Assembly (NCBI GenBank): GCA_964645795.1
Contig: CAZYCL010000003.1
Location: 101,771-165,770, forward strand
Direction of reading: 5' to 3'
Source of the DNA: an uncultured Planctomycetales bacterium
GTDB lineage: Bacteria > Omnitrophota > Gorgyraeia > Gygaellales > Profunditerraquicolaceae
DNA: 64,000 bases
The notes beneath the pieces were generated by a model, which saw nothing but the letters and a program-made list of their open reading frames with translations, ran no database searches and was not told the DNA's origin. Position 1 is the stretch's first letter, and each line of letters begins with the position of its first letter. Made by a program: the position numbers and the translations under genes. This document shows positions 19,799 to 57,140 of this stretch, in pieces.

Positions 19799-20194
19799 CT
19801 AGAATTCGGGGTACTCCGAAGGCAGCTTCGGCTGCTCGACTTGCGGATCTTCGTTTATTCTGCTAAGACTGGGTTTGCCCACGGATTGTTTTAGCGGCGG
19901 TTTATCCCTTCTGTCAAACAAGCGCATAAGTATTTCCCTTAGCTGCGTGTCAGGGACTGCGACGCCAGAGTTTTCTGAGCGCTTAGATTTGGAATCCGGA
20001 AGCAGCTTCCTTGCGCCCTGAGACAGCTCTCTGTTTATTGACGCATTGCCGGAGTATACCGTTGAGCTCTTGTCTTTTTTGTCTTTCTTGTCTTTTTTGT
20101 CCTTGCCCGGCTTGCAATAACCGTCGCTAAAGCACAAAAACACCGATAGCAATAGTATTATAGAGATCCAGAGCGGCCGCCTTGATACCTCCAT
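19799..20194 (-). CDS. Small secreted/lipoprotein-like protein with a (KDK)n repeat, lysine-rich; hypothetical
   Basis: 131 aa. Signal peptide with a possible lipobox (LSVFLCFSDGYC), then KPGKDKKDKKDKKDK. A GGAGG RBS lies 6 nt upstream. It is the only gene downstream of the GEMM-like leader. Confidence 0.7.
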   Translation of the reverse strand: MEVSRRPLWISIILLLSVFLCFSDGYCKPGKDKKDKKDKKDKSSTVYSGNASINRELSQGARKLLPDSKSKRSENSGVAVPDTQLREILMRLFDRRDKPPLKQSVGKPSLSRINEDPQVEQPKLPSEYPEF

Positions 20195-20244: not shown

Positions 20245-20340
20245 GCTAGAGTTTTCGGTAGCCTGACTACCCGTGTCGCTGTCGGGCTCACGGCTTTGCG
20301 TCCTCTCCTTGCGAAGAGTTTGCCTTTATCGAACAATATT
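20245..20340 (-). promoter_or_regulatory. c-di-GMP-I (GEMM) riboswitch aptamer
   Basis: Minus-strand RNA: ...GGCAAAC-CUCUUC-GCAA-GGAGAG-GACGCAAAGCC-GUGAG-CCCG-ACAGCGACA-CGGG-UAGUCAGGCUACCGA... Compared with the Vibrio cholerae Vc2 aptamer (...GGCAAACC-AUUC-GAAA-GAGU-GGGACGCAAAGCC...UACCGA), GGCAAAC and GACGCAAAGCC are identical and there is a 6-bp P1b hairpin capped by a GNRA tetraloop (GCAA). A second hairpin and the 3' UACCGA follow. Confidence 0.8.
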
Positions 20341-38100: not shown

Positions 38101-38114
38101 ATAAACAAATTTGA

Positions 38115-38285
38115 TTATACGGGTTAGGGAAATCAGTCGAAGTACAAGCTGATGCGGTCCCGCCGCTGTGATCCCGGCCTCCTTGAAAGGGAGGCAGCCT
38201 TTGGAGTTAGTAAAGCCACTGTCCGCCGCAAGCGGGTGGGAAGGCTAACCAATGGCCAAGGAAAGCCAGAAGACCTGCCTGTATA
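38115..38285 (+). promoter_or_regulatory. Cobalamin (AdoCbl-type) riboswitch aptamer
   Basis: Conserved blocks appear in the canonical order: GGGAA...CTG...CCCGCCGCTGTGA (cf. CCCGCAACTGTAA), then the GCCACTG core, then GGGAAGGC, then the B12 box AAGCCAGAAGACCTGCC. It is upstream of btuF. Confidence 0.8.
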
Positions 38286-38329
38286 AAGACGCAAAAGCCT
38301 CGAGGAAAGGGCCAAGTAAATATTTGGGT

Positions 38330-42147: not shown

Positions 42148-42184
42148 GGGGACGGTTCTGGGGACAGGTCCCAGAACCGTCCCC
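42148..42184. repeat. Perfect 15-bp inverted repeat hairpin (GGGGACGGTTCTGGG-7nt-CCCAGAACCGTCCCC) between cobU and cobT
   Basis: Exact reverse-complement arms at 42148-42162 and 42170-42184. No T-tract follows. Confidence 0.6.
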
Positions 42185-42200
42185 GCAATACGAGGGTCGG

Positions 42201-43262
42201 ATGGGAAGATTGGCATCTATAGTCAGCAATATCGCTTCATTAGACACTGAGGCTATGGACAGGGCTCAAGCCAGGCTTGACTCTTTGACCAAGCCTCTTG
42301 GGAGCCTGGGCAGACTTGAAAGCCTGGCTAAGCAGATCTGCGGGATAACCGCAAAAACAAACCCCTCGCTGACCAACAAGATCATATTTACCCTGGCCGC
42401 AGACCACGGGGTAACGCAGGAAGGCGTAAGCGCGTTTCCTAAGGAAGTGACCGCACAAATGGTCTATAATTTTATCAAAGGGGGAGCGGCAATTAACGTC
42501 CTGGCAAATCATATCAATGCCAAAGTCGTAGTCGTAGATATCGGCGTTTGCTGCGACCTGAAACCCGACCGCAACCTGGCAATAAAGAAGGTTGCCTGCG
42601 GAACCAAGAATATGGCTGACGGGCCCGCAATGTCCAGGGAACAGGCGCTGGAGGCCATAGATGCGGGTTTTGAAGTTTTTGACAGCGAATTCGATCGAGG
42701 CGTAGATATTATCGGTACAGGCGAGATGGGAATAGGCAACACTACCGCTGCAAGCTGCATAACAGCGGTATTTACTAAAAAAACCCCTCAAGAAGTCACT
42801 GGCAGAGGCGCGGGGCTTGATAATAAAGCACTGGAGCACAAAGTTGAAGTCGTGAAAAAAGCGCTCAGGCTCAATGACCCTGACCCCGCAGACCCTCTGG
42901 GCGTGCTATCCAAGGTCGGAGGGCTGGAGATCGCAGGCCTTGTCGGCATAATCCTGGCGGCAGCCGCCAAGAGGGTACCAGTCGTTATAGACGGTTTTAT
43001 TTCCGGCGCGGCAGCGCTAGTTGCCTGCCGGATGGCGCCGAAGGTAAAGGATTTCATGATCGCCGCGCATGTATCAGCCGAAGGCGGCCACAGGTACGCA
43101 CTCGATCATATGGGGCTGAAGCCGCTTTTAGACCTCGATATGAGGCTGGGTGAAGGGACGGGTGCGGCCCTGGCAATAGGATTGTGCGAGGCGGCGCTAA
43201 ATTTATTGACGCAAATGGCGACGTTTGAGAACGCCAAAGTTTCCAAAAGGAGGCCCGGATGA
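42201..43262 (+). CDS. cobT: Nicotinate-nucleotide--dimethylbenzimidazole phosphoribosyltransferase
   Basis: 353 aa, a CobT-family Rossmann-like protein with the conserved GEMGIGNTT motif. Confidence 0.85.
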   Translation: MGRLASIVSNIASLDTEAMDRAQARLDSLTKPLGSLGRLESLAKQICGITAKTNPSLTNKIIFTLAADHGVTQEGVSAFPKEVTAQMVYNFIKGGAAINVLANHINAKVVVVDIGVCCDLKPDRNLAIKKVACGTKNMADGPAMSREQALEAIDAGFEVFDSEFDRGVDIIGTGEMGIGNTTAASCITAVFTKKTPQEVTGRGAGLDNKALEHKVEVVKKALRLNDPDPADPLGVLSKVGGLEIAGLVGIILAAAAKRVPVVIDGFISGAAALVACRMAPKVKDFMIAAHVSAEGGHRYALDHMGLKPLLDLDMRLGEGTGAALAIGLCEAALNLLTQMATFENAKVSKRRPG

Positions 43263-44008
43263 AACCTTTTCTATTGGCGCTGCAGTTTTTGACTATCATC
43301 CCGGTACAGATAAACAAAGTCAAGACCAGGCACATTGCCTCTTCGGTGGCGTATTTCCCTCTGATCGGCATATTCCTGGGCTCATGTCTCATTATTATTA
43401 ACTTCATATTGCAGCGGAGCGGCTTCAACGCCTTGACGGTTGATACTTTGCTGGTAGTCGCGCTTATTGTCCTTACCGGCGGCCTGCATATGGACGGCCT
43501 TGCCGATACTTGTGACGCTTTAGGCAGCGGTAGCGGCAGGGAGAAAATGCTTGAGATCATGCGAGATTCGCGTATCGGGGCAATGGGGGTTTTAGGCATA
43601 ATATGCGTCATCGTATCCAAGATATCCCTGCTTAACAGCATGGATCAGTTTTTGAAACCTTATGCCCTGCTCTTAATGTGTGTTTTAAGCCGCTGGGGCA
43701 TGGTGCTGGAAATGCTGTCTTTTCGCTATGCCAGGCAAGAAGGCAAGGCAAAGGATTACATAGAAGGCGCGGACCTTAAATTTTTTGTTTTGGCAACGAC
43801 GATAACTTTCGTAACGGTCCTGGCTGCTGGAGGGGCCAGAAGCATAATCGCCATGGCAGTCGTCGCCTTGGCGGTTTTTCTTCTAGGGTTGTTCTTTTCA
43901 AAAAAGTTCGGCGGGATCACCGGAGATACGATCGGGGCAGGCAACGAAATTACGGAACTGGTCTCTCTGGTGGCTATTATTGGGGTGCACCAAGGGTGGC
44001 TGGCATGA
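43259..44008 (+). CDS. cobS: Cobalamin-5'-phosphate synthase (adenosylcobinamide-GDP ribazoletransferase)
   Basis: 249 aa polytopic membrane protein with the CobS signature (GGLHMDGLADTCDAL). Confidence 0.85.
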   Translation: MKPFLLALQFLTIIPVQINKVKTRHIASSVAYFPLIGIFLGSCLIIINFILQRSGFNALTVDTLLVVALIVLTGGLHMDGLADTCDALGSGSGREKMLEIMRDSRIGAMGVLGIICVIVSKISLLNSMDQFLKPYALLLMCVLSRWGMVLEMLSFRYARQEGKAKDYIEGADLKFFVLATTITFVTVLAAGGARSIIAMAVVALAVFLLGLFFSKKFGGITGDTIGAGNEITELVSLVAIIGVHQGWLA

Positions 44009-44697
44009 ATGAACAAGTTGCCCTGTCTTCCTGGAGCGGAGGCAAAGACAGCTGTTTGGCATACTTCAAGGCCATAAACAGCGGCGTCCAGGTAAAGGCC
44101 CTTCTTAATTTCATCGGCCGCGAATCGAAGCGAGGCTGTTTTCATGGCCTAGAGGGCAGGCTTCTAAAGTTCCAGGCCGATCTCATAGGGGTTCCTTTGG
44201 TTCAGAAAGAAGTAAGCCCTGATATGAAGATGTATGAAGGCGAGTTCAAGGCTGCGGTTGAGGAGCTCAAGGCCTCCCGGAAAATAAACTCCATGGTTTT
44301 CGGCGATATTTACCTGCTGGAGCACCAAAGCTGGGTTGAAAGGGTATGCTCGGAGCTTGGAATTAAAGCGGTCGAACCTCTCTGGAACAACGATCCGGAA
44401 AAGATTATCGAAGAGTTTTTGGATGCGGGATTTAGGTCCGTCGTGGTCAGTTGCAAGGCCGATGTCATGGGGCGCGAGTTTATCGGCCGCTTTATAGATA
44501 GGGAGATGGTTAAAGACCTCAAGAAACTCCAAATTTGCCCCTGTGGGGAGAAAGGAGAGTACCATACTTTAGTGGTTGATGGGCCGATATTCAAGAAGCG
44601 CATCGAGATCGCCGAATCCGAGGTGATCAAGAAGGAGAGCTTCTGGACGCACTGGTTTTTGGATATCAAGAGGTACGAAGCGGTAGAAAAGAGCTAA
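43996..44697 (+). CDS. PP-loop ATP pyrophosphatase-like protein of the MJ0570/Dph6 (DUF71) family
   Basis: 233 aa with an N-terminal SGGKDS PP-loop. It is the last gene of the riboswitch-controlled btu-cob operon, ending immediately before the second riboswitch. Confidence 0.6.
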   Translation: MAGMNEQVALSSWSGGKDSCLAYFKAINSGVQVKALLNFIGRESKRGCFHGLEGRLLKFQADLIGVPLVQKEVSPDMKMYEGEFKAAVEELKASRKINSMVFGDIYLLEHQSWVERVCSELGIKAVEPLWNNDPEKIIEEFLDAGFRSVVVSCKADVMGREFIGRFIDREMVKDLKKLQICPCGEKGEYHTLVVDGPIFKKRIEIAESEVIKKESFWTHWFLDIKRYEAVEKS

Positions 44698-44714
44698 AAT
44701 AATCGTTAACTATC

Positions 44715-44850
44715 CGTATGTGCGAAGGAACTCCCGGTGTGATCCCGGGGGCTGCCCCGCAACAGTAATTTAGTTCACAGCCCACTGTCAACTGTCAACT
44801 AATTAGCCTGGTCCATCGTACATAACGGAAAGTACCTTCGCGGGAAGGAA
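44715..44850 (+). promoter_or_regulatory. Second, compact cobalamin riboswitch-like element upstream of btuB
   Basis: It has GGTGtgATCC, GCTGCCCCGCAACAGTAA (consensus GCUGnCCCCGCAACUGUAA) and the AGCCCACTG core. A putative P1 pairs GCGAAGG (44730-44736) with CCTTCGC (44837-44843), with the GGAAAGGAG RBS immediately 3'. The 3' B12-box match (AGCCTGGTCC) is weaker. Confidence 0.55.
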
Positions 44851-44865
44851 AGGAGAATATTTATC

Positions 44866-46707
44866 ATGAACCGGCTTCTGTGTGTATTCATTTCGTTGTT
44901 ATTCATGGGCTGTAACAGCGTTTTTGCGGGTGAGGTCGAGCTTGAGAAGATCGTTGTGACCGCCTCACGGATGCTTCAGCAGGACAGTTCTGTTAACCAA
45001 AAAGTAGACGTTGTAGAAGATAGCCTCATCGAAAGCCGTCAAGCCAATAATCTTGCTAAGGCAATCGAAAGCCTGACCCCGGTCCAGGTGATCAATTACG
45101 GAGGCCTAGGGGCAAGCAAGAGCGTAAGAATGCGGGGGGCTAGCCCTTCGCAGGTCCTGGTCATGGTTGACGGCCGCCCTATCAATAATGCGCGCGACGG
45201 CCAGGCAGAGCTCAATAGCATACAACTGGACAATATCGGGCGAATTGAACTTTTGCGCGGCGCGGCCTCCAGCCTATACGGCTCATCAGCTATGGGTGGC
45301 GTGATAAACCTAATCAGCCGCCCTGTGCCTAAAAAAGGATTCCACAGCGAAATCCATAGCGGCTTCGGGACATTCAGGAGGTATAGCGAACGCCTGCTTC
45401 ATGAAGGCAGGCCAATCCCCCAAATAGGCTACAGCATAAATTATTCTTACAACCATTCGCAGGGCCACAGGAGTAATAGCGATTTTGAAGCAAATAACTT
45501 TAACGCGAAGATAAGCTGCGAACCAACCGATCAAAACAGATTCGAATTTTTGGGAGGAGCCTACAAGGATGAAGCCGGCACTCCCGGACCGGCCAGCTTC
45601 CCCGATGAAGATGACCGCCAGAAATCCAGGAAAAATTACTACGATATAATCTGGGAGTTTGATACCGACGAAAAAACGCAAGTTAAGCTGCGCACTTACC
45701 AGAACTACGACAGGCTAGAGTTCATTGAAAATACTCCGGGCGACTTATGGAGCACGCCTTTTGCCAAAGATATTCATGCTACCAGGCAAAGGGGGCTTGA
45801 TTTTACCGCCAGCCGCGCGTTCTGCGAAAATTTTAGCGCTGTGGGAGGGTTTAATTACGTTGACAACAAAAATGACAGCACGACCTCAGCAAAGCACAAG
45901 TATATCGTAAAAAGCTGGTATTTTACCGGTAAACTCAAGCCTTTGCCGGGCCTTGATCTTGATTTCGGCTCCAGGGTAGACGATTATTCTAACTTCGGCA
46001 GCCAGGTAAGCCCGAATATAGGCATAGGTTGTGATCTGAGAAAGGGTTTGAAGTTTTATGCTTTGACCAGCCGCTCCTTCAGGGCGCCCACGTTTAACGA
46101 CCTTTACTGGCCTGATGAGGGTTGGGCAAAGGGCAACCCTTCCCTGAAGCCTGAAAAAGGCATAAACGGCGAGGCAGGATTCAGGCTCGATTTAGATAAA
46201 CACATCCGGGCCAATCTTTGCTACTTCCGCAGCCGTTACAGCCAGCTTATAAACTGGGTGCCGGATGCATCCGGCTGGGTGTGGTCTCCGACGAACATAG
46301 GCAAGGCGCTTATTGACGGTATCGAATCCGACTTGTCCGTAATGCTGACCGAGGATGTCGGGCTCAGTTTTGGCTATACCTATGTCCGAGCAAAAGACAG
46401 CGATACCCGCAAGTTCCTTATTTATCAACCTAAGCATAAGGCAAAGTTCGGCCTTAAGCATAGCGATATTTACGGTTTTTCTGTCGAATTGAAAGGCGAA
46501 TTCACAGGCAAAGCCTTTCATGATTCCCAGAATGCCACATTCATTGAACGCTACTATCTTCTTGGCTTTAACATCGACAGAAAGATAAACCAACATGCGC
46601 ATTTCTACCTGTCTGTGGATAACCTGCTTAACAAGAAGTATGCAATCGTGCAGGACTATCCCATGCCAGGATTTAGCGTAAACGCGTGCCTTAAGCTTGA
46701 ATTTTAA
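44866..46707 (+). CDS. btuB: TonB-dependent outer-membrane receptor (BtuB-like cobalamin/corrinoid receptor)
   Basis: 613 aa with a signal peptide, TonB box EKIVVTASR, plug domain, 22-strand barrel region, and a C-terminal ...LKLEF ending in Phe. Preceded by a cobalamin riboswitch-like leader. Confidence 0.85.
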   Translation: MNRLLCVFISLLFMGCNSVFAGEVELEKIVVTASRMLQQDSSVNQKVDVVEDSLIESRQANNLAKAIESLTPVQVINYGGLGASKSVRMRGASPSQVLVMVDGRPINNARDGQAELNSIQLDNIGRIELLRGAASSLYGSSAMGGVINLISRPVPKKGFHSEIHSGFGTFRRYSERLLHEGRPIPQIGYSINYSYNHSQGHRSNSDFEANNFNAKISCEPTDQNRFEFLGGAYKDEAGTPGPASFPDEDDRQKSRKNYYDIIWEFDTDEKTQVKLRTYQNYDRLEFIENTPGDLWSTPFAKDIHATRQRGLDFTASRAFCENFSAVGGFNYVDNKNDSTTSAKHKYIVKSWYFTGKLKPLPGLDLDFGSRVDDYSNFGSQVSPNIGIGCDLRKGLKFYALTSRSFRAPTFNDLYWPDEGWAKGNPSLKPEKGINGEAGFRLDLDKHIRANLCYFRSRYSQLINWVPDASGWVWSPTNIGKALIDGIESDLSVMLTEDVGLSFGYTYVRAKDSDTRKFLIYQPKHKAKFGLKHSDIYGFSVELKGEFTGKAFHDSQNATFIERYYLLGFNIDRKINQHAHFYLSVDNLLNKKYAIVQDYPMPGFSVNACLKLEF

Positions 46708-46778
46708 CATGGCTTAAGCCTGAATTTTATCCTGCGGGCCCGGCCCGGACAATGAGCACAAACGTGCGGGTAAAATAA

Positions 46779-47504
46779 TTGTGGCAAAAGCAGCCGGTTT
46801 ATGTTAACTTAAACTGCATGGAATTCACCAGAAGCTTTCAGACTGCTCTTGCTATCTCCATTATAGCCCACACGACGGCGATCCTGCCATTGCCGGGCCT
46901 AAACCGCCTTTCTGAAAACAAAAAGGAAAAAACGCTCGCCGTAAAATATATAAGGCTGCCTAAAGAAAAACGTGAACAGATCCGGCTGGAGGCTAAAACC
47001 CGGGAACGGCTCCTGCCTATCCCCGAGAAGGCTGCCGTCCGGCCAAAACTTCCTGCTCCGGCGCTTACCGACAAAGAGGAGCTGTTTAAGAAGGCCGGTC
47101 CGGGCCAATCCAGGACAGCTCAGCTTAACAAGCCTGCCGTAGCCAATAGCGACGTCATCTCCATAAGGAAAAAGATATCCCTGCCTCCGGTAGACCTTGA
47201 TAAGATCGATAACCCTTCCTATATCGGCTACTACCAGCTGATCCGCGAGAAGATCAAGCGCGCCGCTTACCAGAATTATTCTCGCAGCGACTGCGGTGAC
47301 GTATATATCTCTTTCGTGATCTCTTCCGACGGCCATTTGAAAAACCTGATCCTCAGCGGCGAAAAATCCTCCTCTAACAATTATTTAAAACAAATCGCGG
47401 TTCAAAGCGTCAAAGACGCTTCGCCTTTCCCGAATTTCCCTAAAGAGCTGGATTACCCCCAGCTTTCCTTTAACGTCATCATTTCTTTTGAGATAGACGG
47501 ATAA
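46779..47504 (+). CDS. tonB: Energy transducer TonB
   Basis: 241 aa with an N-terminal TM anchor, a Pro/Lys-rich spacer (PIPEKAAVRPKLPAP) and a TonB_C domain. Possible alternative start at the Met at 46818. Confidence 0.75.
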   Translation: MWQKQPVYVNLNCMEFTRSFQTALAISIIAHTTAILPLPGLNRLSENKKEKTLAVKYIRLPKEKREQIRLEAKTRERLLPIPEKAAVRPKLPAPALTDKEELFKKAGPGQSRTAQLNKPAVANSDVISIRKKISLPPVDLDKIDNPSYIGYYQLIREKIKRAAYQNYSRSDCGDVYISFVISSDGHLKNLILSGEKSSSNNYLKQIAVQSVKDASPFPNFPKELDYPQLSFNVIISFEIDG

Positions 47505-47515
47505 GCTTAGCGAAT

Positions 47516-48208
47516 ATGATCGATGTCAGCGTAATTCTGCCCTGCCTTAATGAAGAGAGGACCGTAGGCGTTTGCATCGACAAGATCCAGCAGGCCTTCC
47601 GGGACAGCCGCATAACCGGCGAGGTGATAGTCGTAGATAATAATTCTTTTGACGGGTCTGCACAGATAGCCCTCCAAAAAGGGGTGAAGGTGCTTCATGA
47701 AGATAAACAAGGCTACGGTAACGCGTACTTAAAGGGCCTGTCGCAAGCGCAAGGGAGAACCGTTATTTTTGGAGATATCGACAACACCTATGATTTCCGT
47801 GAAATTCCGCGTCTTTTGGATGCGATGAAAAAGAACAGCTGCGGCGCGGTAAACGGAAGCCGGTTCATGGGAAGGATAGAGCCGGGGTCTATGCCCTGGC
47901 TGCATCAATATATAGGGAATCCGTTTTTCACGGGATTATTCAATATTTTATTCGGTGCCGGGTTATCCGACCTGCTAAGCGGGTTTAAGGCTGTCAGCAG
48001 AGAGCGCCTGGATACCATCCACCTCAAAGAAACGGGAATGGAATTTATCGCTGAATTGGCGATAAAGCTGATAAAATCCGGCTGCCGGATAGAAGAAGTG
48101 CCCATAACCTATTGCCCCAGGAATAAAGATTCAAAGTCGAAGTTGAATACCTTTAGAGACGGCTGGAGGTATCTTAAGTTCATATGGACGGCCCGCTGGT
48201 CAGCATAA
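47516..48208 (+). CDS. Family 2 glycosyltransferase, soluble DPM1/GtrB-like polyprenol-phosphate sugar synthase
   Basis: 230 aa with GT-A DxD motifs (VSVILPCLNEE...VVDNNSFDGS...FGDIDN). Confidence 0.75.
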   Translation: MIDVSVILPCLNEERTVGVCIDKIQQAFRDSRITGEVIVVDNNSFDGSAQIALQKGVKVLHEDKQGYGNAYLKGLSQAQGRTVIFGDIDNTYDFREIPRLLDAMKKNSCGAVNGSRFMGRIEPGSMPWLHQYIGNPFFTGLFNILFGAGLSDLLSGFKAVSRERLDTIHLKETGMEFIAELAIKLIKSGCRIEEVPITYCPRNKDSKSKLNTFRDGWRYLKFIWTARWSA

Positions 48209-49164
48209 TCATACCGGCACGCAATGAGGCGGCCAACATAGAAAGATGCCTTGGCGCCCTTAGGCGGCAGACTTACCCAAAGATAGAGATTGTCGTAATT
48301 GATAACTGCAGCACGGACAACACGGCCCTTTTGGCCCAAGGGCTGGCCCATAAGGTCGTCGATGAACGGCGCAAGGGGATCGTTCATGCCAAAAACGCCG
48401 GCATAAAGGCTTCTTCAGGAGATCTGGTGGCCACAATCGACGCCGATTGCCTGGCCCGGGAAGATTGGATCAAAGAGCTGCTGCCATGTTTTGAAGATGC
48501 CGGTGTTGCTGGCGCCGGCGGACCCAATATTGCCCATGAAAATTCCGGGGCTATCCAGGGCTACATCGATGCTTTAATGCTTTTGCTATGCAAATGGATA
48601 GGCTCAAGATATGTAACGCAGGACACCCTGCGCAGGGACGTTACTCATATACCCGGCTGCAACGCTATATACAGAAGGACAGTATTGGATAAACTTGGCG
48701 GTTTTGACCCCAGGCTCCTTACCGTTGAAGACGAAGAGCTTGACTACCGCATCCTTGCGGCTGGCCACCGGATCATCTACGTTCCTTCTGCCGTGGTCTT
48801 CCACCGGCGCAGGGGCGACTGTCTAAGTTTTGCCCGCCAGATTTACAGGTATGCTATCGGCAGGATGCAGTTTATCAGGCTCCACCGGCTCTACCTTAAG
48901 CAGTTCCCCAGAATCCTGCCCTCTATTTTACTGATGTCAGCCGCCCTGCTTGTTATCGCAGGTTTTTTCGTCCCGGGGCTTTCAAGGCCGCTTGAGTTTT
49001 TAGCGTTTTCTTGCACGGCCTCACTTGCGGCGGCGTCTTTATATTTATGCTTCACAAGCCGAAAGGCTAACCCATTTATTTTTATGCTTTTGTTTGCGGT
49101 TGCTTTTTTCGCCTGGGGATCGGGCATGATCAGGGGATTGGCGTATCCGTACGAGGAATCTTAG
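48184..49164 (+). CDS. Family 2 glycosyltransferase with C-terminal TM helices (GtrB-like)
   Basis: 326 aa with GT-A motifs (VSIIIPARNEA...VIDNCSTDNT...TIDADC) and two or three C-terminal TM segments. Confidence 0.75.
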   Translation: MDGPLVSIIIPARNEAANIERCLGALRRQTYPKIEIVVIDNCSTDNTALLAQGLAHKVVDERRKGIVHAKNAGIKASSGDLVATIDADCLAREDWIKELLPCFEDAGVAGAGGPNIAHENSGAIQGYIDALMLLLCKWIGSRYVTQDTLRRDVTHIPGCNAIYRRTVLDKLGGFDPRLLTVEDEELDYRILAAGHRIIYVPSAVVFHRRRGDCLSFARQIYRYAIGRMQFIRLHRLYLKQFPRILPSILLMSAALLVIAGFFVPGLSRPLEFLAFSCTASLAAASLYLCFTSRKANPFIFMLLFAVAFFAWGSGMIRGLAYPYEES

Positions 49165-49165
49165 G

Positions 49166-50296
49166 ATGAGGTTCATAAACCAATTTGATACTATATTGCG
49201 CTACATCGCCGGTGTGCCTAAAGCCGGCTTGCCTCAACAGGTCTATTGGGTAATAAATGAAGAGTGCAATCTCAAATGCCGGTTCTGCAATTTTTGGAAA
49301 GGTATTTACCGCGAGGATGGCCGCAGGCCTCTTTCAACGGCCAACATAAAATCGATAATTGATAAAGCTTCGCGAGCCGGCATACCCTACCTGCTTTTCA
49401 CCGGAGGCGAGCCTTTCCTGAGGCCCGATCTGCCTGAAATACTGGAATATGCCGCAAAAAGGATGCCTTGCGTGCGGGTCCAGACTAACGGGACCCTGCT
49501 GACAGACGCGAAACTCCAAGCCATCGTAAATAGAAGATCCCTGGATGAGCTATGGATTTCCGTCGACGGTATCGGGTCTACGCACGATAGGTTCCGCGGA
49601 TGCGAGGGCATCTTCGAAAAAGTCATTGGCGCCCTGAAATCGATCGACCTTTTGAAAAAGAAGCATTCTGCCAGGCTGCCGTATATAGTAGTGCATACCG
49701 TGGTCAACAAAGAATGCATGGAAGAACTGCCGCAAATACTCAAAATCTGCGATGATTACAATGTCAATGAATGGTTCCTCAGCTATTTGACCGATGTCAG
49801 TGAATCGGCGGTCGCTGCTACAAACGGGATTTTAAAACGAGACTGCGTTTATTCCGGGCAGATGCAGCAGGGAGGGGACCAGGCTACCGGCGATCTGCGG
49901 ATTTCCGATGATATGCTCAAATCGATAAGAGAAGCCAGAAAAAAAGGCCTGGTCGTCTACATTGACCCGTTCCTGCTGGACGGATACGGCCGGCGCCCCA
50001 GAGAGAAATGCCTCCTGCTATGGTCGAGCATGATGGTTTCTCCTTACGGCGAGCTTCTGGTCTGCCCGATGCTTGACAAATGCCGCATGGGGAATCTCCT
50101 GGAAAACGAAATACCGGTAATCTGGAACAGCAAGGAATTCATCGAAATAAGGAAAAAGGTCATTTCCAGGGACGTGCCTCTATGCGAAGAATGCTGCGTG
50201 CAGCGCAGGACCATATGGTCTCAGTTTAAGGATCCGGCTAATTTCAGCCGTATTTTAATCCCAAGAGGCGTGCGCCAACGCCTTTACCGAAGATAA
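49166..50296 (+). CDS. Radical SAM enzyme with a SPASM/twitch auxiliary Fe-S domain
   Basis: 376 aa with CNLKCRFCNFW (CxxxCxxC) and a C-terminal Cys-rich SPASM-like region (CLLLWS...LLVCPMLDKCRMGNL...CEECCV). Confidence 0.8.
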   Translation: MRFINQFDTILRYIAGVPKAGLPQQVYWVINEECNLKCRFCNFWKGIYREDGRRPLSTANIKSIIDKASRAGIPYLLFTGGEPFLRPDLPEILEYAAKRMPCVRVQTNGTLLTDAKLQAIVNRRSLDELWISVDGIGSTHDRFRGCEGIFEKVIGALKSIDLLKKKHSARLPYIVVHTVVNKECMEELPQILKICDDYNVNEWFLSYLTDVSESAVAATNGILKRDCVYSGQMQQGGDQATGDLRISDDMLKSIREARKKGLVVYIDPFLLDGYGRRPREKCLLLWSSMMVSPYGELLVCPMLDKCRMGNLLENEIPVIWNSKEFIEIRKKVISRDVPLCEECCVQRRTIWSQFKDPANFSRILIPRGVRQRLYRR

Positions 50297-50316
50297 CCGG
50301 GCCATTTGATAGAGAA

Positions 50317-51735
50317 ATGAAAATACTTCTTCTAAGCCCTCCTTTCGTAAAAGGATTCGCCCGCAACGGCAGATGCGATTATGTCACCTGGTCGGGTACC
50401 CAGTGGTATCCGATATGGTTGGGGTATTGCGGAGGGTTGCTTGAGAAAAATAACCACAAGGTAAAACTTATCGATGCGCCGGCAATGAGGATCGGCTTTA
50501 AAGAAACACTGAGAGCCGTAAAAGAGTTCAAGCCCGATCTTGTGACGGTTTACAGTTCAACCCGCAGCCAGAAAAGCGACATCGATTTCTTAAAGGAAAT
50601 CAGGTCGCGCTTTTTTGGGCGCATAATTCTTGCCGGGCCTTATGTATCGGGAATAGAGGAAGAGCTCTTAAAATCAAACAACAGCATAGACGGGGTTGTC
50701 AGAGGAGAATTTGAATATCCGCTCCTTAAGATGGCCGGCGGTTCGCGCGAATCCGAAATCGATAACCTCATTTGGAGAAAAGGCTGCGAGGTATTCTCCA
50801 ATCCCATGCGGGGGCCGCTTACCGGCAGTGAACTGGATAGCCTTCCTTTTGTTACCGATTTCTATGCGCGCCACCTTGACCTAAGAAATTATCACGTACC
50901 TTCGGAGCTTTTCCCATTTCTGGACCTGTTTACCGGAAGGGGCTGCGCATGGGGAAGGTGCATTTTTTGCCTCTGGCCGCACGCATTTATAAAAGGCCCG
51001 GCCTATGCCACCCGCAGCATCAATAATGTTATGGAGGAGTTGGATTTTGTGGCCAGAAAGCTTTCGTCTATACGGCAAGTATTTTTCCAGGACGACACTT
51101 TGCCGGCGCACAGAGCTACGGAGCTATCAGAAGCGATCCTAAAGCGGCGGATAAAGCTGACCTGGGGATGTTATGTCAGGGCGGATACGAGCTATGAAAC
51201 CCTAAGGCTTATGAAAAAGGCGGGTTGCCGCACGCTGCATGTCGGCTATGAGAGCGGGGTTCAGGCTTTGCTTGATACCATTAATAAAGGAATTACCCTG
51301 CAACAGATGCATGAATTCAGCAAGAATTCCCGTAAGGCCGGCTTGAGGGTGCACGGTGACTTCCTCTTTGGCCTTCCCGGAGAAACCAGGGACTCCCTGC
51401 GCACGACCATAAATTGGGCGATCAACCTTGATCCGGAGACAGCCCAATTCCTTAAAATAAATTTATACGGTTCAACGCCTGTCTATGGAATGCTTGAAAG
51501 CGCAAGTTTTCATAAAAAAGGAGTTTACGAACGGGCCGCGGTCACGGACAAAGAGATTGACGATTTCATCAGGCAGGCATACCGAAAATTCTATTTAAGG
51601 CGGGGTTTCATGAAAAGATTATGCCTGTACCCATTCGAATATTGTTTCAGGCAGATCCCCGCAGTAGAACAAATGATAAAAAGAATGCTTTTTGGCCCTG
51701 ACCGGCCATATTCGCAAGCAGCGGATCAGAGATGA
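50317..51735 (+). CDS. Cobalamin-binding radical SAM enzyme (class B, B12-binding domain + rSAM)
   Basis: 472 aa with an N-terminal B12-binding Rossmann-like domain (MKILLLSPPF...), then GRGCAWGRCIFCLWP. Confidence 0.8.
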   Translation: MKILLLSPPFVKGFARNGRCDYVTWSGTQWYPIWLGYCGGLLEKNNHKVKLIDAPAMRIGFKETLRAVKEFKPDLVTVYSSTRSQKSDIDFLKEIRSRFFGRIILAGPYVSGIEEELLKSNNSIDGVVRGEFEYPLLKMAGGSRESEIDNLIWRKGCEVFSNPMRGPLTGSELDSLPFVTDFYARHLDLRNYHVPSELFPFLDLFTGRGCAWGRCIFCLWPHAFIKGPAYATRSINNVMEELDFVARKLSSIRQVFFQDDTLPAHRATELSEAILKRRIKLTWGCYVRADTSYETLRLMKKAGCRTLHVGYESGVQALLDTINKGITLQQMHEFSKNSRKAGLRVHGDFLFGLPGETRDSLRTTINWAINLDPETAQFLKINLYGSTPVYGMLESASFHKKGVYERAAVTDKEIDDFIRQAYRKFYLRRGFMKRLCLYPFEYCFRQIPAVEQMIKRMLFGPDRPYSQAADQR

Positions 51736-54578
51736 AAACAAGAACGGTTATATTGATAGGTTTGGCCGCACTATGCTCCCAATTGCTGGTAAACCAACAT
51801 ATCATGGGCAATTCCAGGCTGCTTAGGCCTAGTGACCAGGAGCAGAGGATGCTGGAGAGCATCGAAGTTTTTAAAAACTTATCGGAAGGGAATCTGGTCG
51901 CCTGCCTCAAGCAGGCAACGAGTTTCAATCTGCAAGGCCCGGCCCATCCCAAGTTGTTTTCTTTTGTCCAGGGAGTATTCTTATTCCTGATTAGCAGACC
52001 GGGTCATTGCGATTATGAACTTATGATCCTGACCACCAATATGTTCTACCTTTTGTTACTTTTTATCGCTGTGTTCGGCATAGGCGCCATGCTGGCCGAC
52101 AGAAAAACCGGCCTATTTGCCGCGGTAACGGTCCTATTCTCACCCGTAGTCTTTAGCTTCTCGCGGGCAAGCATGCTGGACCTTTCCCTTGCCGCGATGG
52201 TCGCGTTAACGTTCTTTTGCCTTCTTAGGACCAGGCAGTTTGAATCACTTATATTTACCATCCTGACCGCCCTGATGTTCTTCTTCTCGCAGCTGACCAA
52301 AGAGACCGCCTGGATTTTTGTCTTTCCGGTATTAGCGTATTACACGCTAAACTCCCTTACCCAAAGAAAACGCCTTGCGGCGCGCCTGCCTAATCTACTC
52401 TTGTTTGCGGCAGTTTTCTCTCTGCTGTTAGCAGGCATTTTCTTTACCAACCGCTTTGCGGCCGGAGCCCTGCGCAGCTATTATAATGTTTTTTACTATA
52501 ACTGCTGTCACTATGACCTGTTTTATGCTGACGCGCTTCTGAGGGCATATCTTGGGGTTGCCCTCTCAATATGCGTTATCCCATTATTGCGGAGATTGCC
52601 TTCCTGTTTGCGTAAAACAGGGCCTTTGCTTTTATTATGGGCGATAGTCCCTTTCCTGGTATTTTCCGTCCTATCTTTCAAAGCCGCCCGTTATCTTATG
52701 CCTATAGTGCCGGCGCTCTTTTTAACGGTAGCCATTTTGGTCTTCAGCATCAATAACAGCTATTACAGGCGCATTTATGTATGTTTACTGGCCCTTGTAA
52801 TAGCAGCTCAATACATAGGCCTTAATTTTTTCAACAAGCAGTGTTATCTGGACGAAGGGATATACTGCGCTACTGAAGACGAAAATTATTACTGGTCCGG
52901 CAAGCTGATCGAAATCTTTCGCGAAGAGCGGCCCCTTGACCCCGAAATAAACTGGCGGATCTTGGTTATATTTGACCTGGGGGCCCACGCGCCTCTATAC
53001 AGGGAGGTTGCCCTCAAGAGGATGCCGTTTGAAATATCTGTCCCGGCCGAAGACGAAGAGTATACAAAATTCCATAATTTTGAATTCTCCGATTGCGAGA
53101 ATTTGATACTCTGCGCGGATTATATCGTAGATAAAACAGGGGTTTTATCAAGCTCGCCATTTCATGCCGTCCTCGCCGGCTGCCTACAGGAGGCGTTTAA
53201 TAAAAATAAGTCGGTTTTCACTGAAATATCCTCTTTTGGCCTTGATAATGGGGACCGTGTTTTTATCTATAAAAAGGACATGCAAAAAGCCCTGGAATAT
53301 TTTACCGCGACCTTAAAGCTTGCGCCCGAATATCTGATAGCCTATGAAAGATTGGGTTGGATCCATAGAAGGCTGGGCGAATCATGCGAAAGCAGGTCTC
53401 TTGCCGATGAAGCCCGTGCTCACTTCAACAAATCGCTTCAGCTCTACCCCGCTAATCCGCAGGCATACCTGAGACTTGCCCAGAATTTGCTTAAAAACAA
53501 AAAGTTTGATGCGGCGATCGATAGTTTCAATAAGGCCCTGGCGTTAAAACCCGACTGCGCGGAGGCCTATAATGGGCTGGGCTGGGCATGCAGAGAAATG
53601 GGGCGGCTGGGTCAAGCCGAGGATTATTTTGATAAAGCCTTAAAGATCAAATCCGATTTCACGGCTGCGTTGATCGGGCTTGGATGGATATATCACTTGA
53701 AAGGCTGCCTTCCGGAGGCAGAGAAGTGTTTTTACAGGTCCATTGGCCTCGATCGCCAAGACAGAGAGGCTTATATCGGCCTGGGATGGAATTACCATAA
53801 AATGGGCAACTTCCCTAAGGCTGAGGAGGCTTTTAAGAAGGCGCTTGAACTCAGTCCTGACTACGCCGAAGCCTACAAGGGCCTGGCCTGGACCTATCGC
53901 AGCCAGGGCAAGCTCAAGGAAGCGGGGGAGTGCATCGATAAGTGGTTGAAGACCCATCCAGGTTCGTCAGAAGCCTATTGTATTTTAGGATGGTCTCGCC
54001 ATGTGGAAAACAAGCTCTCTGAAGCCGAAAGACTCTTTCAAAAAGCCATACAGCTTGATTCCAAGAACCGCGAAGGCTATATCGGCCTGGGATGGAATTA
54101 CCATAAAATGGGCAACTTCCCTAAGGCTGAGGAGGCTTTTAAGAAGGCGCTTGAACTCAGTCCTGACTACGCCGAAGCCTACAAGGGCCTGGCCTGGACC
54201 TATCGCAGCCAGGGCAAGCTCAAGGAAGCGGGGGAGTGCATCGATAAGTGGTTGAAGACCCATCCAGGTTCGTCAGAAGCCTATTGTATTTTAGGATGGT
54301 CTCGCCATGTGGAAAACAAGCTCTCTGAAGCCGAAAGACTCTTTCAAAAAGCCATACAGCTTGATTCCAAGAACCGCGAAGGCTATATCGGCCTGGGATG
54401 GAATTACCATAAAAGCGGTAAATTCAATGAAGCGCAGAAGGCCTTTAAACAGGCCCTGGCCCTTAGCCCCGGCTATGCCGAGGCATATAAAGGCCTGGCC
54501 TGGACCTATCGCAGCCAGGGCAAGCTCAAGGAAGCGGCACAATATTTAGAAAAGGCCGGTAAAAAAGTCGATAAATGA
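51732..54578 (+). CDS. Polytopic GT-C-type (PMT/ArnT-like) membrane glycosyltransferase fused to a C-terminal TPR array
   Basis: 948 aa. The N-terminal ~480 aa have ~11 TM helices with GT39/ArnT-like loops. The C-terminal ~450 aa are TPR repeats (GLGW.YH..G.F..A...F.KAL.L.PD.AEAY). Confidence 0.65.
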   Translation: MKTRTVILIGLAALCSQLLVNQHIMGNSRLLRPSDQEQRMLESIEVFKNLSEGNLVACLKQATSFNLQGPAHPKLFSFVQGVFLFLISRPGHCDYELMILTTNMFYLLLLFIAVFGIGAMLADRKTGLFAAVTVLFSPVVFSFSRASMLDLSLAAMVALTFFCLLRTRQFESLIFTILTALMFFFSQLTKETAWIFVFPVLAYYTLNSLTQRKRLAARLPNLLLFAAVFSLLLAGIFFTNRFAAGALRSYYNVFYYNCCHYDLFYADALLRAYLGVALSICVIPLLRRLPSCLRKTGPLLLLWAIVPFLVFSVLSFKAARYLMPIVPALFLTVAILVFSINNSYYRRIYVCLLALVIAAQYIGLNFFNKQCYLDEGIYCATEDENYYWSGKLIEIFREERPLDPEINWRILVIFDLGAHAPLYREVALKRMPFEISVPAEDEEYTKFHNFEFSDCENLILCADYIVDKTGVLSSSPFHAVLAGCLQEAFNKNKSVFTEISSFGLDNGDRVFIYKKDMQKALEYFTATLKLAPEYLIAYERLGWIHRRLGESCESRSLADEARAHFNKSLQLYPANPQAYLRLAQNLLKNKKFDAAIDSFNKALALKPDCAEAYNGLGWACREMGRLGQAEDYFDKALKIKSDFTAALIGLGWIYHLKGCLPEAEKCFYRSIGLDRQDREAYIGLGWNYHKMGNFPKAEEAFKKALELSPDYAEAYKGLAWTYRSQGKLKEAGECIDKWLKTHPGSSEAYCILGWSRHVENKLSEAERLFQKAIQLDSKNREGYIGLGWNYHKMGNFPKAEEAFKKALELSPDYAEAYKGLAWTYRSQGKLKEAGECIDKWLKTHPGSSEAYCILGWSRHVENKLSEAERLFQKAIQLDSKNREGYIGLGWNYHKSGKFNEAQKAFKQALALSPGYAEAYKGLAWTYRSQGKLKEAAQYLEKAGKKVDK
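53772..54414. repeat. Perfect 306-bp tandem duplication (about 2.1 copies) inside the TPR-coding region
   Basis: 53772-54108 is nucleotide-identical to 54078-54414 (period 306 bp = 102 aa = three TPRs). This produces the identical shadow ORFs in the minus-strand track (53640-53957, 53985-54263, 54291-54542). Confidence 0.9.
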
Positions 54579-55705
54579 CAGGATTATTCGCTGGTGATTT
54601 CAAAGCCGTATACCTGGCTTTACTTTTCCTGGTATGGTGGAGCTACCAGGGTTATTTTATTTACTTGTATACGCATGCACGCAAGCCCCGTGAAAACTCA
54701 CCCGATCCAAACAGGCATTTCTTTACCATCGTCGTACCTGTTTTTAACGAGAAGGAGCTTATTGAAGCGAAGGTCGAAAATCTCAGGCGCCTCAGAGGAG
54801 GGAATTACGAAGTTTATTTTTCAGACGCCTCTTGCGATGAAACCTCCAAGATGATCAATAATCTTATTGACGGTTTGGACAATTTCAAGCTGATCCGGGC
54901 AGAGTATCGTAGCCGCAGCTTCCAGATCAATCAAGTTTTGTGCAGAGCTAAAGGAGACTTGATACTTATCAGCGACTGTGACGGACTTATCAGCGAAGAT
55001 GCGCTGGAAAAAATATCGGCAGAATTCGCTGACCAGGATACGGCCGTGGTCGGGGCCTACGTTGTGCCGCGCACCGGCTACGTCAAAGATATCCGATTCT
55101 GGACGGTCCAAAACAGCATGCGCAGCCTTGAAAGCTCTTATGGGCACGCTTCGACGGCAGTGGGTGTCTGTTACGCCTTTCGTAAGGATCTGTTAAGCCG
55201 CATCCCCGATGACTCGCTGGCAGAAGACATATACATATCGCTATTTGCCAACTTCAAAGGTCGACGCACCGTTTACTCGGCGGATGTAATCGCTTATGAG
55301 TTGCGATTCCCGCGCAATTTCAAGCAATTCCTGAAACACAAGATCGCTAAAGCAGAAAACAACATCACGGAGATGTTCAGGTTCCTGCCTTGCGTATGGA
55401 GTGCCGGCGCAAAGTGGTTGATAGTTTATCTTACCAGGCTCAGCCAGATAGCCATACTGCCCATACTTGTTTATGCCTTTTTTTACCTGGCATTCTTTCA
55501 AAAACCAACGATGATCTTTTTCAGCGCATGCCTTCTGTTTTTCTCAGGCATAGCGCAGTTGCATATAATCTCAAAAATCAAGAAAGAGCAAACGAGGTTA
55601 AACCTGGCGCAGGTAATAGAGATAGCTGCATTGACCAATTTAATTCTTTTTATCGCGATAATTAAACACTTCGTTTTGAGAAGGAAAGTCTATACGCGCA
55701 TATGA
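54575..55705 (+). CDS. Integral-membrane family 2 glycosyltransferase (processive synthase-like topology)
   Basis: 376 aa with two N-terminal TM helices, a GT-A catalytic core (IVVPVFNEKE...DASCDE...SDCDG) and 3-4 C-terminal TM helices. Confidence 0.7.
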   Translation: MTGLFAGDFKAVYLALLFLVWWSYQGYFIYLYTHARKPRENSPDPNRHFFTIVVPVFNEKELIEAKVENLRRLRGGNYEVYFSDASCDETSKMINNLIDGLDNFKLIRAEYRSRSFQINQVLCRAKGDLILISDCDGLISEDALEKISAEFADQDTAVVGAYVVPRTGYVKDIRFWTVQNSMRSLESSYGHASTAVGVCYAFRKDLLSRIPDDSLAEDIYISLFANFKGRRTVYSADVIAYELRFPRNFKQFLKHKIAKAENNITEMFRFLPCVWSAGAKWLIVYLTRLSQIAILPILVYAFFYLAFFQKPTMIFFSACLLFFSGIAQLHIISKIKKEQTRLNLAQVIEIAALTNLILFIAIIKHFVLRRKVYTRI

Positions 55706-55709
55706 GCAT

Positions 55710-57140
55710 ATGGATGTATTGATCTTAAACGGGCCGTTCATCAAGGATTTTTGCAGAAATCAACGCTGGCCCGCAAGAACAAGGGCAAGGGTGCTGCGGC
55801 CCCCGGATTGGCTATGTTACGCAGCCGCCGTACTCAAAAAAGAAAGTTTAAGCGTCTCGCTTTACGATTTTGTCGCCAGGGGTTGGGATAAAGACAGGCT
55901 GGCCGAGATTGCACGCCGGGAAAAACCCGATTTCGTCGTTATTGACTCTTCCACGCCTTCGATATATTCAGATATCGAGTGCGCCTGGATATGCAAGTCC
56001 AATTCGCGGGCCAAGGTCATAATGGTTGGCACTCACGCTACGGCTTTCCCGCGGGAAACCCTCATGGCGGCAAAGGGAAGCATTGACGTTATCGCGCTGG
56101 GAGAATATGACCATACTATAAGCGATATCATCCGGTCCTGGCCGCGTCTTGAAGGGGTGCGCGGGGTAGCTTATCTAAGGCAAGGGAAAACGGAATTTGG
56201 CGCCTGCCGGCCGCTTATCGATGATTTAGACAGCCTTCCTTTCCCGGCATGGCATTACCTGGATATATACAGCTATTTTGACGCAGGAAGGCTTTATCCC
56301 TATATAAATATTATCGGCGGGCGGGGCTGCCCATACCAATGCTCTTTTTGCCAGTGGCCTCAGCTTATGTTCGGCCACCAGTACCGTTTTCGTTCGCCGA
56401 AAAACATCGTTGACGAAATCGAGTACGACCTCTCGCTCTTCCCGGGCCTTAAAAAGGGCGAGTTTTTCTTCGAAGACGACACATTCACAGTCAATAAAGA
56501 GCGGGCGGAGCTTATCACTGAGGAAATCAGCCGGCGAGGCCTGGGCATAACCTGGTCTGCCAATTCGCGGCCGGATATTCTTGATCCGGGGCTGTTTCGC
56601 AAGATGAAACTGTCGGGCTGCCGAGAATTGCTGGTTGGGTTTGAATCCGGAGACCAGCACATTCTCGATAACATCAAGAAGAACCTGAAACTGGAGCACT
56701 CTTGGGAGTTTGTTAGGCTGGCCAGGGAAGCCGGGTTACAGGTGCACGGTTGTTTTGTCCTCGGACTTCCGGGAGAGACAAAGGAGTCGGCCGCCAGAAC
56801 CATAGAGTTTGCCCTGAAGCTTGGTATCGATACCCTGCAGTTCTCGGCCGCAGTGCCTCTGCCGGGTTCGGAGTATTTTGACTACTGCCAAAAACAAGGG
56901 CTCCTGAAAGCTTCATCCTGGGACAACTGGCTTGAAGGGGGAGAGCAGGGGGCGGTAGTCGAGTATCCGGGGCTGAGCATAAAAGACATCAACCGCATGG
57001 TTGATGACGGATTAAAAAGATTTTATCTGAATCCGCGGTTTATCCTCAAATCGCTTGCCTCTAGCCGCGGCCTCCGTGATGTTTTCTGCAAGGCCAGGGG
57101 CGGCTTCAATTTTCTTTCCTACCTGCTTAATCGCAGTTGA
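55710..57140 (+). CDS. Cobalamin-binding radical SAM enzyme (class B), paralog of 50317-51735
   Basis: 476 aa with the same architecture (MDVLILNGPF...; GGRGCPYQCSFCQWP) and alignable with the other copy throughout. Confidence 0.8.
   Translation: MDVLILNGPFIKDFCRNQRWPARTRARVLRPPDWLCYAAAVLKKESLSVSLYDFVARGWDKDRLAEIARREKPDFVVIDSSTPSIYSDIECAWICKSNSRAKVIMVGTHATAFPRETLMAAKGSIDVIALGEYDHTISDIIRSWPRLEGVRGVAYLRQGKTEFGACRPLIDDLDSLPFPAWHYLDIYSYFDAGRLYPYINIIGGRGCPYQCSFCQWPQLMFGHQYRFRSPKNIVDEIEYDLSLFPGLKKGEFFFEDDTFTVNKERAELITEEISRRGLGITWSANSRPDILDPGLFRKMKLSGCRELLVGFESGDQHILDNIKKNLKLEHSWEFVRLAREAGLQVHGCFVLGLPGETKESAARTIEFALKLGIDTLQFSAAVPLPGSEYFDYCQKQGLLKASSWDNWLEGGEQGAVVEYPGLSIKDINRMVDDGLKRFYLNPRFILKSLASSRGLRDVFCKARGGFNFLSYLLNRS

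Follow-up and report, generated by a model that had tools for sequence, protein, structure and literature searches.

A probable young, in-frame tandem duplication of a three-repeat block in the tetratricopeptide tail of a GT-C glycosyltransferase from an Omnitrophota bacterium

Slippage, unequal crossing-over and gene conversion are the drivers of repeat-array evolution (PMC5120217), and tandem duplications mediated by homology arms leave a characteristic footprint, in which the duplicated unit is accompanied by one extra copy of the arm (bioRxiv 10.64898/2026.02.28.708716). Among glycosyltransferases that carry tetratricopeptide repeats (TPRs), the eukaryotic TMTC1–4 proteins are O-mannosyltransferases of the GT-C/PMT clan whose TPRs are C-terminal and luminal; prokaryotic look-alikes have been reported (PMC7801869). 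Here we analyse a stretch of 64,000 nucleotides (nt) of contig CAZYCL010000003.1 (assembly GCA_964645795.1, positions 101,771–165,770; hereafter the window), which contains a complete gene for a 948-aa GT-C glycosyltransferase with a C-terminal TPR tail (window 51732–54578, plus strand; defined by the list of open reading frames, the translation, Pfam and an AlphaFold model). Within this tail, a 306-bp block encoding three TPRs, A-B-C, is present twice in perfect tandem copies. We conclude, with a probability of about 0.72, that this reflects a real and evolutionarily young in-frame tandem duplication.

The preliminary description of this DNA had reported that nucleotides 53772–54108 recur base for base at 54078–54414. 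This is correct: all 337 positions are equal at an offset of 306 nt, and the identity ends abruptly at both coordinates. The offset amounts to 102 codons, exactly the three 34-residue TPRs that had been claimed, in the frame of the open reading frame (ORF) 51732–54578, which remains intact across the duplication and in which every repeat scores as a TPR. Tandem Repeats Finder returned a single array (53767–54537; period 306, 2.5 copies, 93% matches), and a repeat search over the 64-kb window found no further long repeat. A further 55-bp identical stretch, previously placed at about 54479, proved to be shorter. It is an exact 46-nt run at 54492–54537, equal to 53880–53925 and 54186–54231, and the 13 nt ahead of it hold 4 mismatches.

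The coding TPR context of the duplication was confirmed both by profile matches and by a modelled TPR superhelix. The array as a whole (aa 516–948; 53277–54575, plus strand) begins with ∼1.5 degenerate repeats, and 11 canonical TPRs of 34 residues make up the rest. It was matched by the Pfam profiles TPR_1 (E 5.1e-76, in 9 stretches) and TPR_2 (E 2.8e-69), and AlphaFold placed 25 consecutive helices at residues 517–947 with 34-residue spacing, at a predicted local distance difference test score (pLDDT) of mostly 85–95. Written in 34-residue units, the array reads T1–T4, A, B, C, A, B, C, A', B', with eleven units in exact 34-residue register. Short ORFs recur within it with the period of the repeat, at 53640–53957, 53985–54263 and 54291–54542 on the minus strand and at 53743–53949, 54001–54255 and 54307–54549 on the plus strand; these antisense and out-of-frame ORFs are by-products of the repeated sequence and not genes.

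The length of the perfect identity, 337 nt, is the sum of the 306-nt unit and a further 31 nt, so that the 643-nt region has the layout a-M-a-M-a, where a is a 31-nt arm and M a body of 275 nt. The arm, TATATCGGCCTGGGATGGAATTACCATAAAA, begins at 53772, 54078 and 54384 (3 matches, against 0 expected from 100 shuffles). Its first copy (53772–53802) encodes YIGLGWNYHK and is followed by the first copy of M (53803–54077), which comprises the remainder of TPR A, all of TPRs B and C, and the first 6 nt of the next TPR. The second copy of the arm (54078–54108) lies at the M-a-M junction that the duplication would have newly made, and the 33-mer formed by the arm with a C before it and a T after it (CTATATCGGCCTGGGATGGAATTACCATAAAAT) is diagnostic of that junction. 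The second copy of M (54109–54383, again 275 nt and identical to the first) leads into the third arm (54384–54414), which is at the same time the beginning of an older, diverged TPR, A'. The remainder of A'-B' up to the stop codon (54415–54578) contains 77 diverged nt, the 46-nt run and a unique C-terminal helix; all of these features are on the plus strand.

The sequences that flank the three arms differ in an informative way. On the 5' side, arm 1 is preceded by ..GAGGCT, whereas arms 2 and 3 are preceded by ..GAAGGC; on the 3' side, arm 3 is followed by GCGGTAAA, whereas arms 1 and 2 are followed by TGGGCAAC. This is the pattern predicted for the arrangement L-a-M-a-M-a-R, and it therefore fits a duplication that took place between the arms. 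Likewise, an identity that extends over the unit plus the 31-nt arm, and that ends abruptly, is the footprint expected of a homology-arm-mediated duplication.

From this anatomy we infer that the ancestral allele had the arrangement L-a-M-a-R and encoded a protein of 846 aa with an array ending ...A-B-C-A'-B', in which A and A' would have shared a perfect 31-nt tract, 306 nt apart. The two arms would then have served as the sites of one unequal homologous exchange, involving sister chromosomes, or of one replication slip, either of which would have yielded a-M-a-M-a. The protein would have gained 102 residues, while its frame, its TPR register and its translational coupling to the downstream GT2 gene would have been left undisturbed. 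With the arms set 306 nt (3 × 34 codons) apart from the outset, every exchange or slip of this kind would of itself conserve frame and TPR register; it would also keep the ATGA stop/start overlap with the GT2 gene. The TPR superhelix, which is probably periplasmic (see below), would have been lengthened from ∼9.5 to ∼12.5 repeats. By analogy with OGT and TMTC, this superhelix may dock the acceptor or partner proteins of the enzyme, and the array could on the same analogy be the substrate-recognition domain that the preliminary description had named as putative.

The locus shares with described homology-arm duplications the two exact tandem copies and the additional copy of a short arm, placed in frame within a coding repeat array, an arrangement from which ready reversion or further expansion is expected. 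It differs in the length of the arm, which is 31 nt here as compared with the 4–25 nt of microhomology arms (bioRxiv 10.64898/2026.02.28.708716), and an arm of this length is within reach of RecA-type homologous recombination. It also differs in that the unit is a three-TPR block rather than a single repeat, and in that the arm itself apparently comes from an earlier gene conversion. Read as a duplication, the feature is a routine case of a TPR array growing by whole blocks through homology arms; the mechanism is well documented for repeat proteins and for tandem duplications at large (PMC5120217; bioRxiv 10.64898/2026.02.28.708716), and the locus is a clean and unsurprising example of it.

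We then compared the locus with independent assemblies, namely those of Logan, which are built at k = 31 from public sequencing runs and which were found through the proteins of the genes on either side. The upstream anchor, an HpnJ-like B12-binding radical S-adenosylmethionine (SAM) gene that scores below its family cutoff (50317–51735, plus strand; Pfam, NCBIfam), led to contigs from ERR4524290 and ERR14964780 that cover window positions 42156–53801. The downstream anchor, the translationally coupled GT2 glycosyltransferase gene (54575–55705, plus strand; Pfam, NCBIfam), led to contigs from three runs (ERR4524290, ERR14964774 and ERR4524288) whose first base is window position 54508. The flanks were identical to the window in all four runs, apart from 3 single-nucleotide polymorphisms (SNPs) in ERR14964780. 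The assembly around the duplication is therefore sound, as its flanks are reproduced in four independent runs, and these runs leave the copy number unconfirmed: the upstream contigs (L004 and L005) run as far as 53801, so that they include 30 nt of arm 1, and the downstream contigs (L001–L003) begin at 54508, so that they include the last 30 nt of the 46-nt run. Breaks at these repeats are unavoidable in a k = 31 graph, whose shape does not depend on whether there are 1, 2 or n copies, and the Logan assemblies are therefore uninformative on this point. A literature search on the four run accessions gave no match, and the 31-nt arm had 0 exact matches when metagenome contigs of the Joint Genome Institute (JGI) were scanned.

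Several observations weigh against a real duplication. There is a single record of the exact 948-aa protein, on one NCBI contig of 252,815 bp, and the two-copy arrangement is thus contained in a single assembly only. All of the k = 31 assemblies break at the arm, and the M-a-M junction is unconfirmed by them. The length of the arm, 31 nt, equals a commonly used assembly k, and an assembler working at low k could in principle over-traverse the loop. Lastly, no one-copy or three-copy allele that would show the locus to vary was found in an exact look-up within a collection of 15 billion proteins, from which the one-copy (846-aa), three-copy (1050-aa) and B/B'-recombinant alleles were all absent. 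This look-up is a weak test, because protein fragments known to be present on Logan contigs were also absent from the collection. The earlier proposal that copy number is likely to be variable here is a reasonable inference, but one for which the collection offered no allele of alternative length.

A rival reading is that the genome carries one copy (L-a-M-a-R, 846 aa) and that the assembler circled the a-M loop once too often. At k ≤ 31 the 31-nt arm turns the de Bruijn graph cyclic at any true copy number, which agrees with the Logan contigs stopping at 53801 and resuming at 54508, and the two-copy protein is recorded from that one contig alone. Nothing else in the 64 kb appears misassembled, however, and the flanks are exactly reproduced in the four runs. 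Moreover, current metagenome assemblers finish at values of k well above 31, at which the M-a-M junction needs real read support, and assemblers usually collapse tandem repeats and seldom expand them. We therefore regard an assembly artefact as unlikely. In-frame expansion and assembly artefact, the two options named in the preliminary description, were the right pair to consider, and the choice between them is left undecided by the k = 31 assemblies.

An error in the opposite direction can also be envisaged, in which the genome has at least three copies and the assembly represents the minimum traversal of the loop. The 337-nt perfect repeat exceeds typical short reads, so that a short-read assembler can report only the shortest route through the graph that includes each edge; the Logan graphs are again uninformative. 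Positive evidence for additional copies is absent, however, and the 1050-aa allele is missing from the protein collection, in the weak test described above. We consider it most improbable that further copies have been missed. A genuine duplication present in two copies, as deposited, remains the reading that we adopt in what follows.

The array also preserves traces of an older history. The comparison of A/B with A'/B' revealed a mosaic, in which perfect runs of 37 nt and 46 nt surround a 77-nt segment (54415–54491, plus strand) with 27 mismatches (35% divergence). At third codon positions, 0 of 27 sites differ inside the runs, as compared with 18 of 26 in the middle segment, and permuting the mismatch positions 200,000 times never recovered both perfect runs. 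Since synonymous sites are identical beyond what amino-acid conservation would account for, the pattern points to earlier short-patch gene conversion, or to repeated recombination, within the array. The arm used in the latest duplication was probably itself the product of such a conversion between older paralogous repeats. We also considered a 306-nt periodicity in the older part of the array and rejected it, as the upstream TPRs T1–T4 bear no particular 306-nt relation to A–C, and T2–T4 are no closer to A–C than is any other pair of TPRs.

The presence of conversion patches in the A'/B' pair means that conversion operates in this array, and a real but old duplication could in consequence have been kept identical by gene conversion (concerted evolution); alternatively, its copies could have been homogenized by short-read polishing. 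Moreover, the absence of differences over 306 nt sets a 95% upper bound on divergence of only ∼0.98%. However, the two copies are identical along the entire 306-nt unit, right up to the arm boundaries and no further, which fits a single event better, and in the neighbouring pair patchwise conversion left segments that are 35% diverged. We therefore think it quite unlikely that an old duplication has been preserved in this way.

The strain data also bear on the age of the proposed young duplication. The second strain (contig L005, ERR14964780) differs from the window by 3 SNPs in 11,646 nt (0.026%), at window positions 46343, 52320 and 53745. A difference of this size predicts only 0.08 differences between the two copies, and the duplication may therefore predate the split of the strains. 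The preliminary description had called the event very recent; from these sequence comparisons it appears young relative to the A/A' pair, but the bound of less than ∼1% is compatible with an origin before the strains diverged, and the event need not postdate the split of the two that were observed. Two of the three SNPs are non-synonymous changes in the GT-C/TPR gene itself, one (V to I) in the membrane domain and the other (G to S) in the TPR that immediately precedes the duplication.

In the full-length AlphaFold model of the protein (mean pLDDT 87.5), 11 membrane helices are followed by an alpha/beta domain (residues ∼370–515) and then by the 25 helices of ∼12.5 TPRs. The N-terminal catalytic part (aa 1–515; 51732–53276, plus strand) comprises the 11 predicted membrane helices and the small alpha/beta domain (aa ∼370–515). 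It matched PMT_2 (PF13231) with E 6.8e-7 and 30.1 bits, above the gathering cutoff of 26.1. Among Pfam families at E ≤ 1, residues 1–520 otherwise matched only PMT (PF02366, below threshold) and Glyco_transf_22. An NCBIfam scan of the N-terminal part gave no match, and a sequence search of the PDB with this domain gave nothing meaningful. The fold was clearer from structure comparison. A model of the N-terminal part built with 19 homologues (pLDDT 85, predicted template modelling score 0.85) had ArnT (5ezm/5f15; template modelling score 0.58–0.61) as its best Foldseek match, and all 24 matches at E ≤ 1e-3 were GT-C enzymes (ArnT, STT3, PglB, AglB, ALG12, ALG9, Pmt4 and AftA).

Shortly beyond the first membrane helix (residues 3–27), the first extracytoplasmic loop carries Asp35, which is conserved in at least 90% of 20–36 aligned homologues; the motif in this loop is S-D-Q-E (D-Q) in the window protein, as compared with D-E in most relatives. 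From the hydropathy profile and the model, the protein is predicted to have its N-terminus inside, 11 membrane spans and its C-terminus outside. Such a topology would put the TPR tail in the periplasm. GT-C enzymes of the ArnT/PMT/OST type draw on a polyprenyl-phosphate-linked sugar donor at the outer membrane face, and the present enzyme may do likewise.

The enzyme thus resembles ArnT and other PMT_2 (GT39/GT83-like) proteins both in its above-threshold profile match and in its closest structural match. It differs from them in being only 33–35% identical to its nearest homologues, with no NCBIfam or PDB sequence match, in having a C-terminal TPR tail, and in having radical-SAM and GT2 genes as neighbours rather than an arn operon. 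With the TMTC proteins it shares a GT-C domain of ∼11 helices, an acidic residue in the first external loop and some 10 TPRs that follow the membrane part and are, in the present case by prediction, non-cytoplasmic. Unlike TMTC, however, it lacks DUF1736 and has D-Q in place of the strictly conserved DD motif of the first external loop; it has an alpha/beta domain of ∼145 residues between the membrane part and the TPRs, and its nearest relatives have no TPRs. Because DUF1736 and the DD motif are absent, we regard the window protein as an analogue of TMTC in architecture, and not as an orthologue or a member of that family. The third likeness is to OGT and SPINDLY, in which a long TPR superhelix is likewise attached to a glycosyltransferase. 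The best Foldseek match of the array is the TPR domain of OGT (1w3b; E 3e-18, 26% identity over 364 columns), and SPY and consensus-TPR superhelices were matched as well. OGT, however, is a soluble GT-B enzyme with N-terminal TPRs, whereas the window protein is a membrane GT-C enzyme with C-terminal TPRs.

A search with the full-length protein returned only the protein itself, the next match being 26% identical and confined to the TPRs, and word-based searches with the N-terminal domain and with a profile gave nothing useful. An exhaustive HMMER search with the N-terminal domain found 1,379 homologues, the best of them 33–35% identical; as it found no orthologue above 35% identity, a comparison of TPR number between orthologues has none to draw on. 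Nearly all of the top homologues are 515–560 aa long and end at a conserved '...IYVYKK' motif, at the point where the TPRs of the window protein begin. Of the 149 best homologues (P0030–P0178), 148 stop where the tail begins, and a TPR tail was detectable in one only (P0083, 792 aa). This distribution indicates that the tail is a young, lineage-specific addition. The TPR units of P0083 are mutually similar (21–25 of 34 residues), and TPR tails in this GT-C family consequently look young and expandable. A tblastn search within the window found no other similar TPR array, and hence no local donor for the tail.

One could go further and suppose that the tail is a fast-evolving, copy-number-variable module on an otherwise TPR-less GT-C family, which behaves like a contingency locus and gains or loses three TPRs at a time through arms made by gene conversion. 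We consider this generalization very doubtful. If it were true, block-wise gain and loss of TPRs would tune the reach, or the choice of acceptor, of a periplasmic glycosyltransferase in Omnitrophota.

The gene lies in a co-directional and partly overlapping series that consists of two GT2 genes, a radical SAM/SPASM gene, an HpnJ-like B12-radical SAM gene, the GT-C/TPR gene, a GT2 gene and a second HpnJ-like B12-radical SAM gene. The start of the GT-C/TPR gene overlaps the stop codon of the B12-radical SAM gene ahead of it (ATGA), and its own stop codon overlaps the start of the GT2 gene behind it (ATGA). The two HpnJ-like genes that flank it, at 50317–51735 and 55710–57140, are paralogous and scored 311 and 348 bits against a cutoff of 578. 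The intervening GT2 gene (54575–55705) shows faint similarity to HpnI and PgaC, and no gene reaches the family thresholds. Judged by these sequence similarities, the layout is reminiscent of the HpnI/HpnJ pair, which builds the cyclitol ether head group of hopanoids.

Comparable neighbourhoods surround TPR-less homologues on two unrelated JGI metagenome contigs (L088 and L090), the corresponding region of the window being 47516–57140. On L088 (1103–9191), the neighbours are B12-radical SAM, radical SAM/SPASM, two GT2, GT1 and Bac_transf genes; on L090 (2245–16230), they include ten radical SAM genes, seven of which have a SPASM domain, and a second PMT_2 gene. The recurrence of such neighbourhoods in the window and on both contigs leads us to place the enzyme in a recurrent glycoconjugate-modifying module without a known product.

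Elsewhere in the window, a cobalamin riboswitch (38104–38296, plus strand; 62.9 bits) heads a run of genes with CobT and CobS and then a TonB-dependent receptor and a TonB-like gene (42201–46707). The position of this run, directly upstream of a cluster with two B12-radical SAM genes, suggests that B12 supply and B12 use are laid out together. A c-di-GMP-I-GGC riboswitch (20253–20333, minus strand; 68.7 bits) lies just upstream of an ORF of 131 aa (19799–20194, minus strand), which has a signal-peptide-like start and a KDKKDKKDKKDK stretch and is among the very few minus-strand genes of the window. The window opens with the end of a ribosomal-protein/rpoA operon; the plus strand carries nearly all of the long ORFs, the cumulative GC skew rises throughout, and no tRNA genes were found in the 64 kb. 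The RpoA protein encoded there is at most 84% identical to those of Candidatus Omnitrophota metagenome-assembled genomes or of any GTDB species representative, and the source is therefore a member of the Omnitrophota with no close relative among sequenced genomes.

The locus affords a textbook-clean view of the growth of a repeat array, in which the ancestral allele, the arm that was used and the earlier conversion that made the arm can be read from one sequence. It also flags a place at which a deposited assembly may hold a wrong copy number, with the length of the protein uncertain between 948 and 846 aa. The biological effect of the duplication on the glycosyltransferase is expected to be modest: from consensus TPR geometry, three additional TPRs correspond to ∼27 Å of superhelix. 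The more interesting by-product of the analysis is the context, a GT-C family that is found consistently among radical-SAM/SPASM, B12-radical-SAM and GT2 genes and for which there is no known product.

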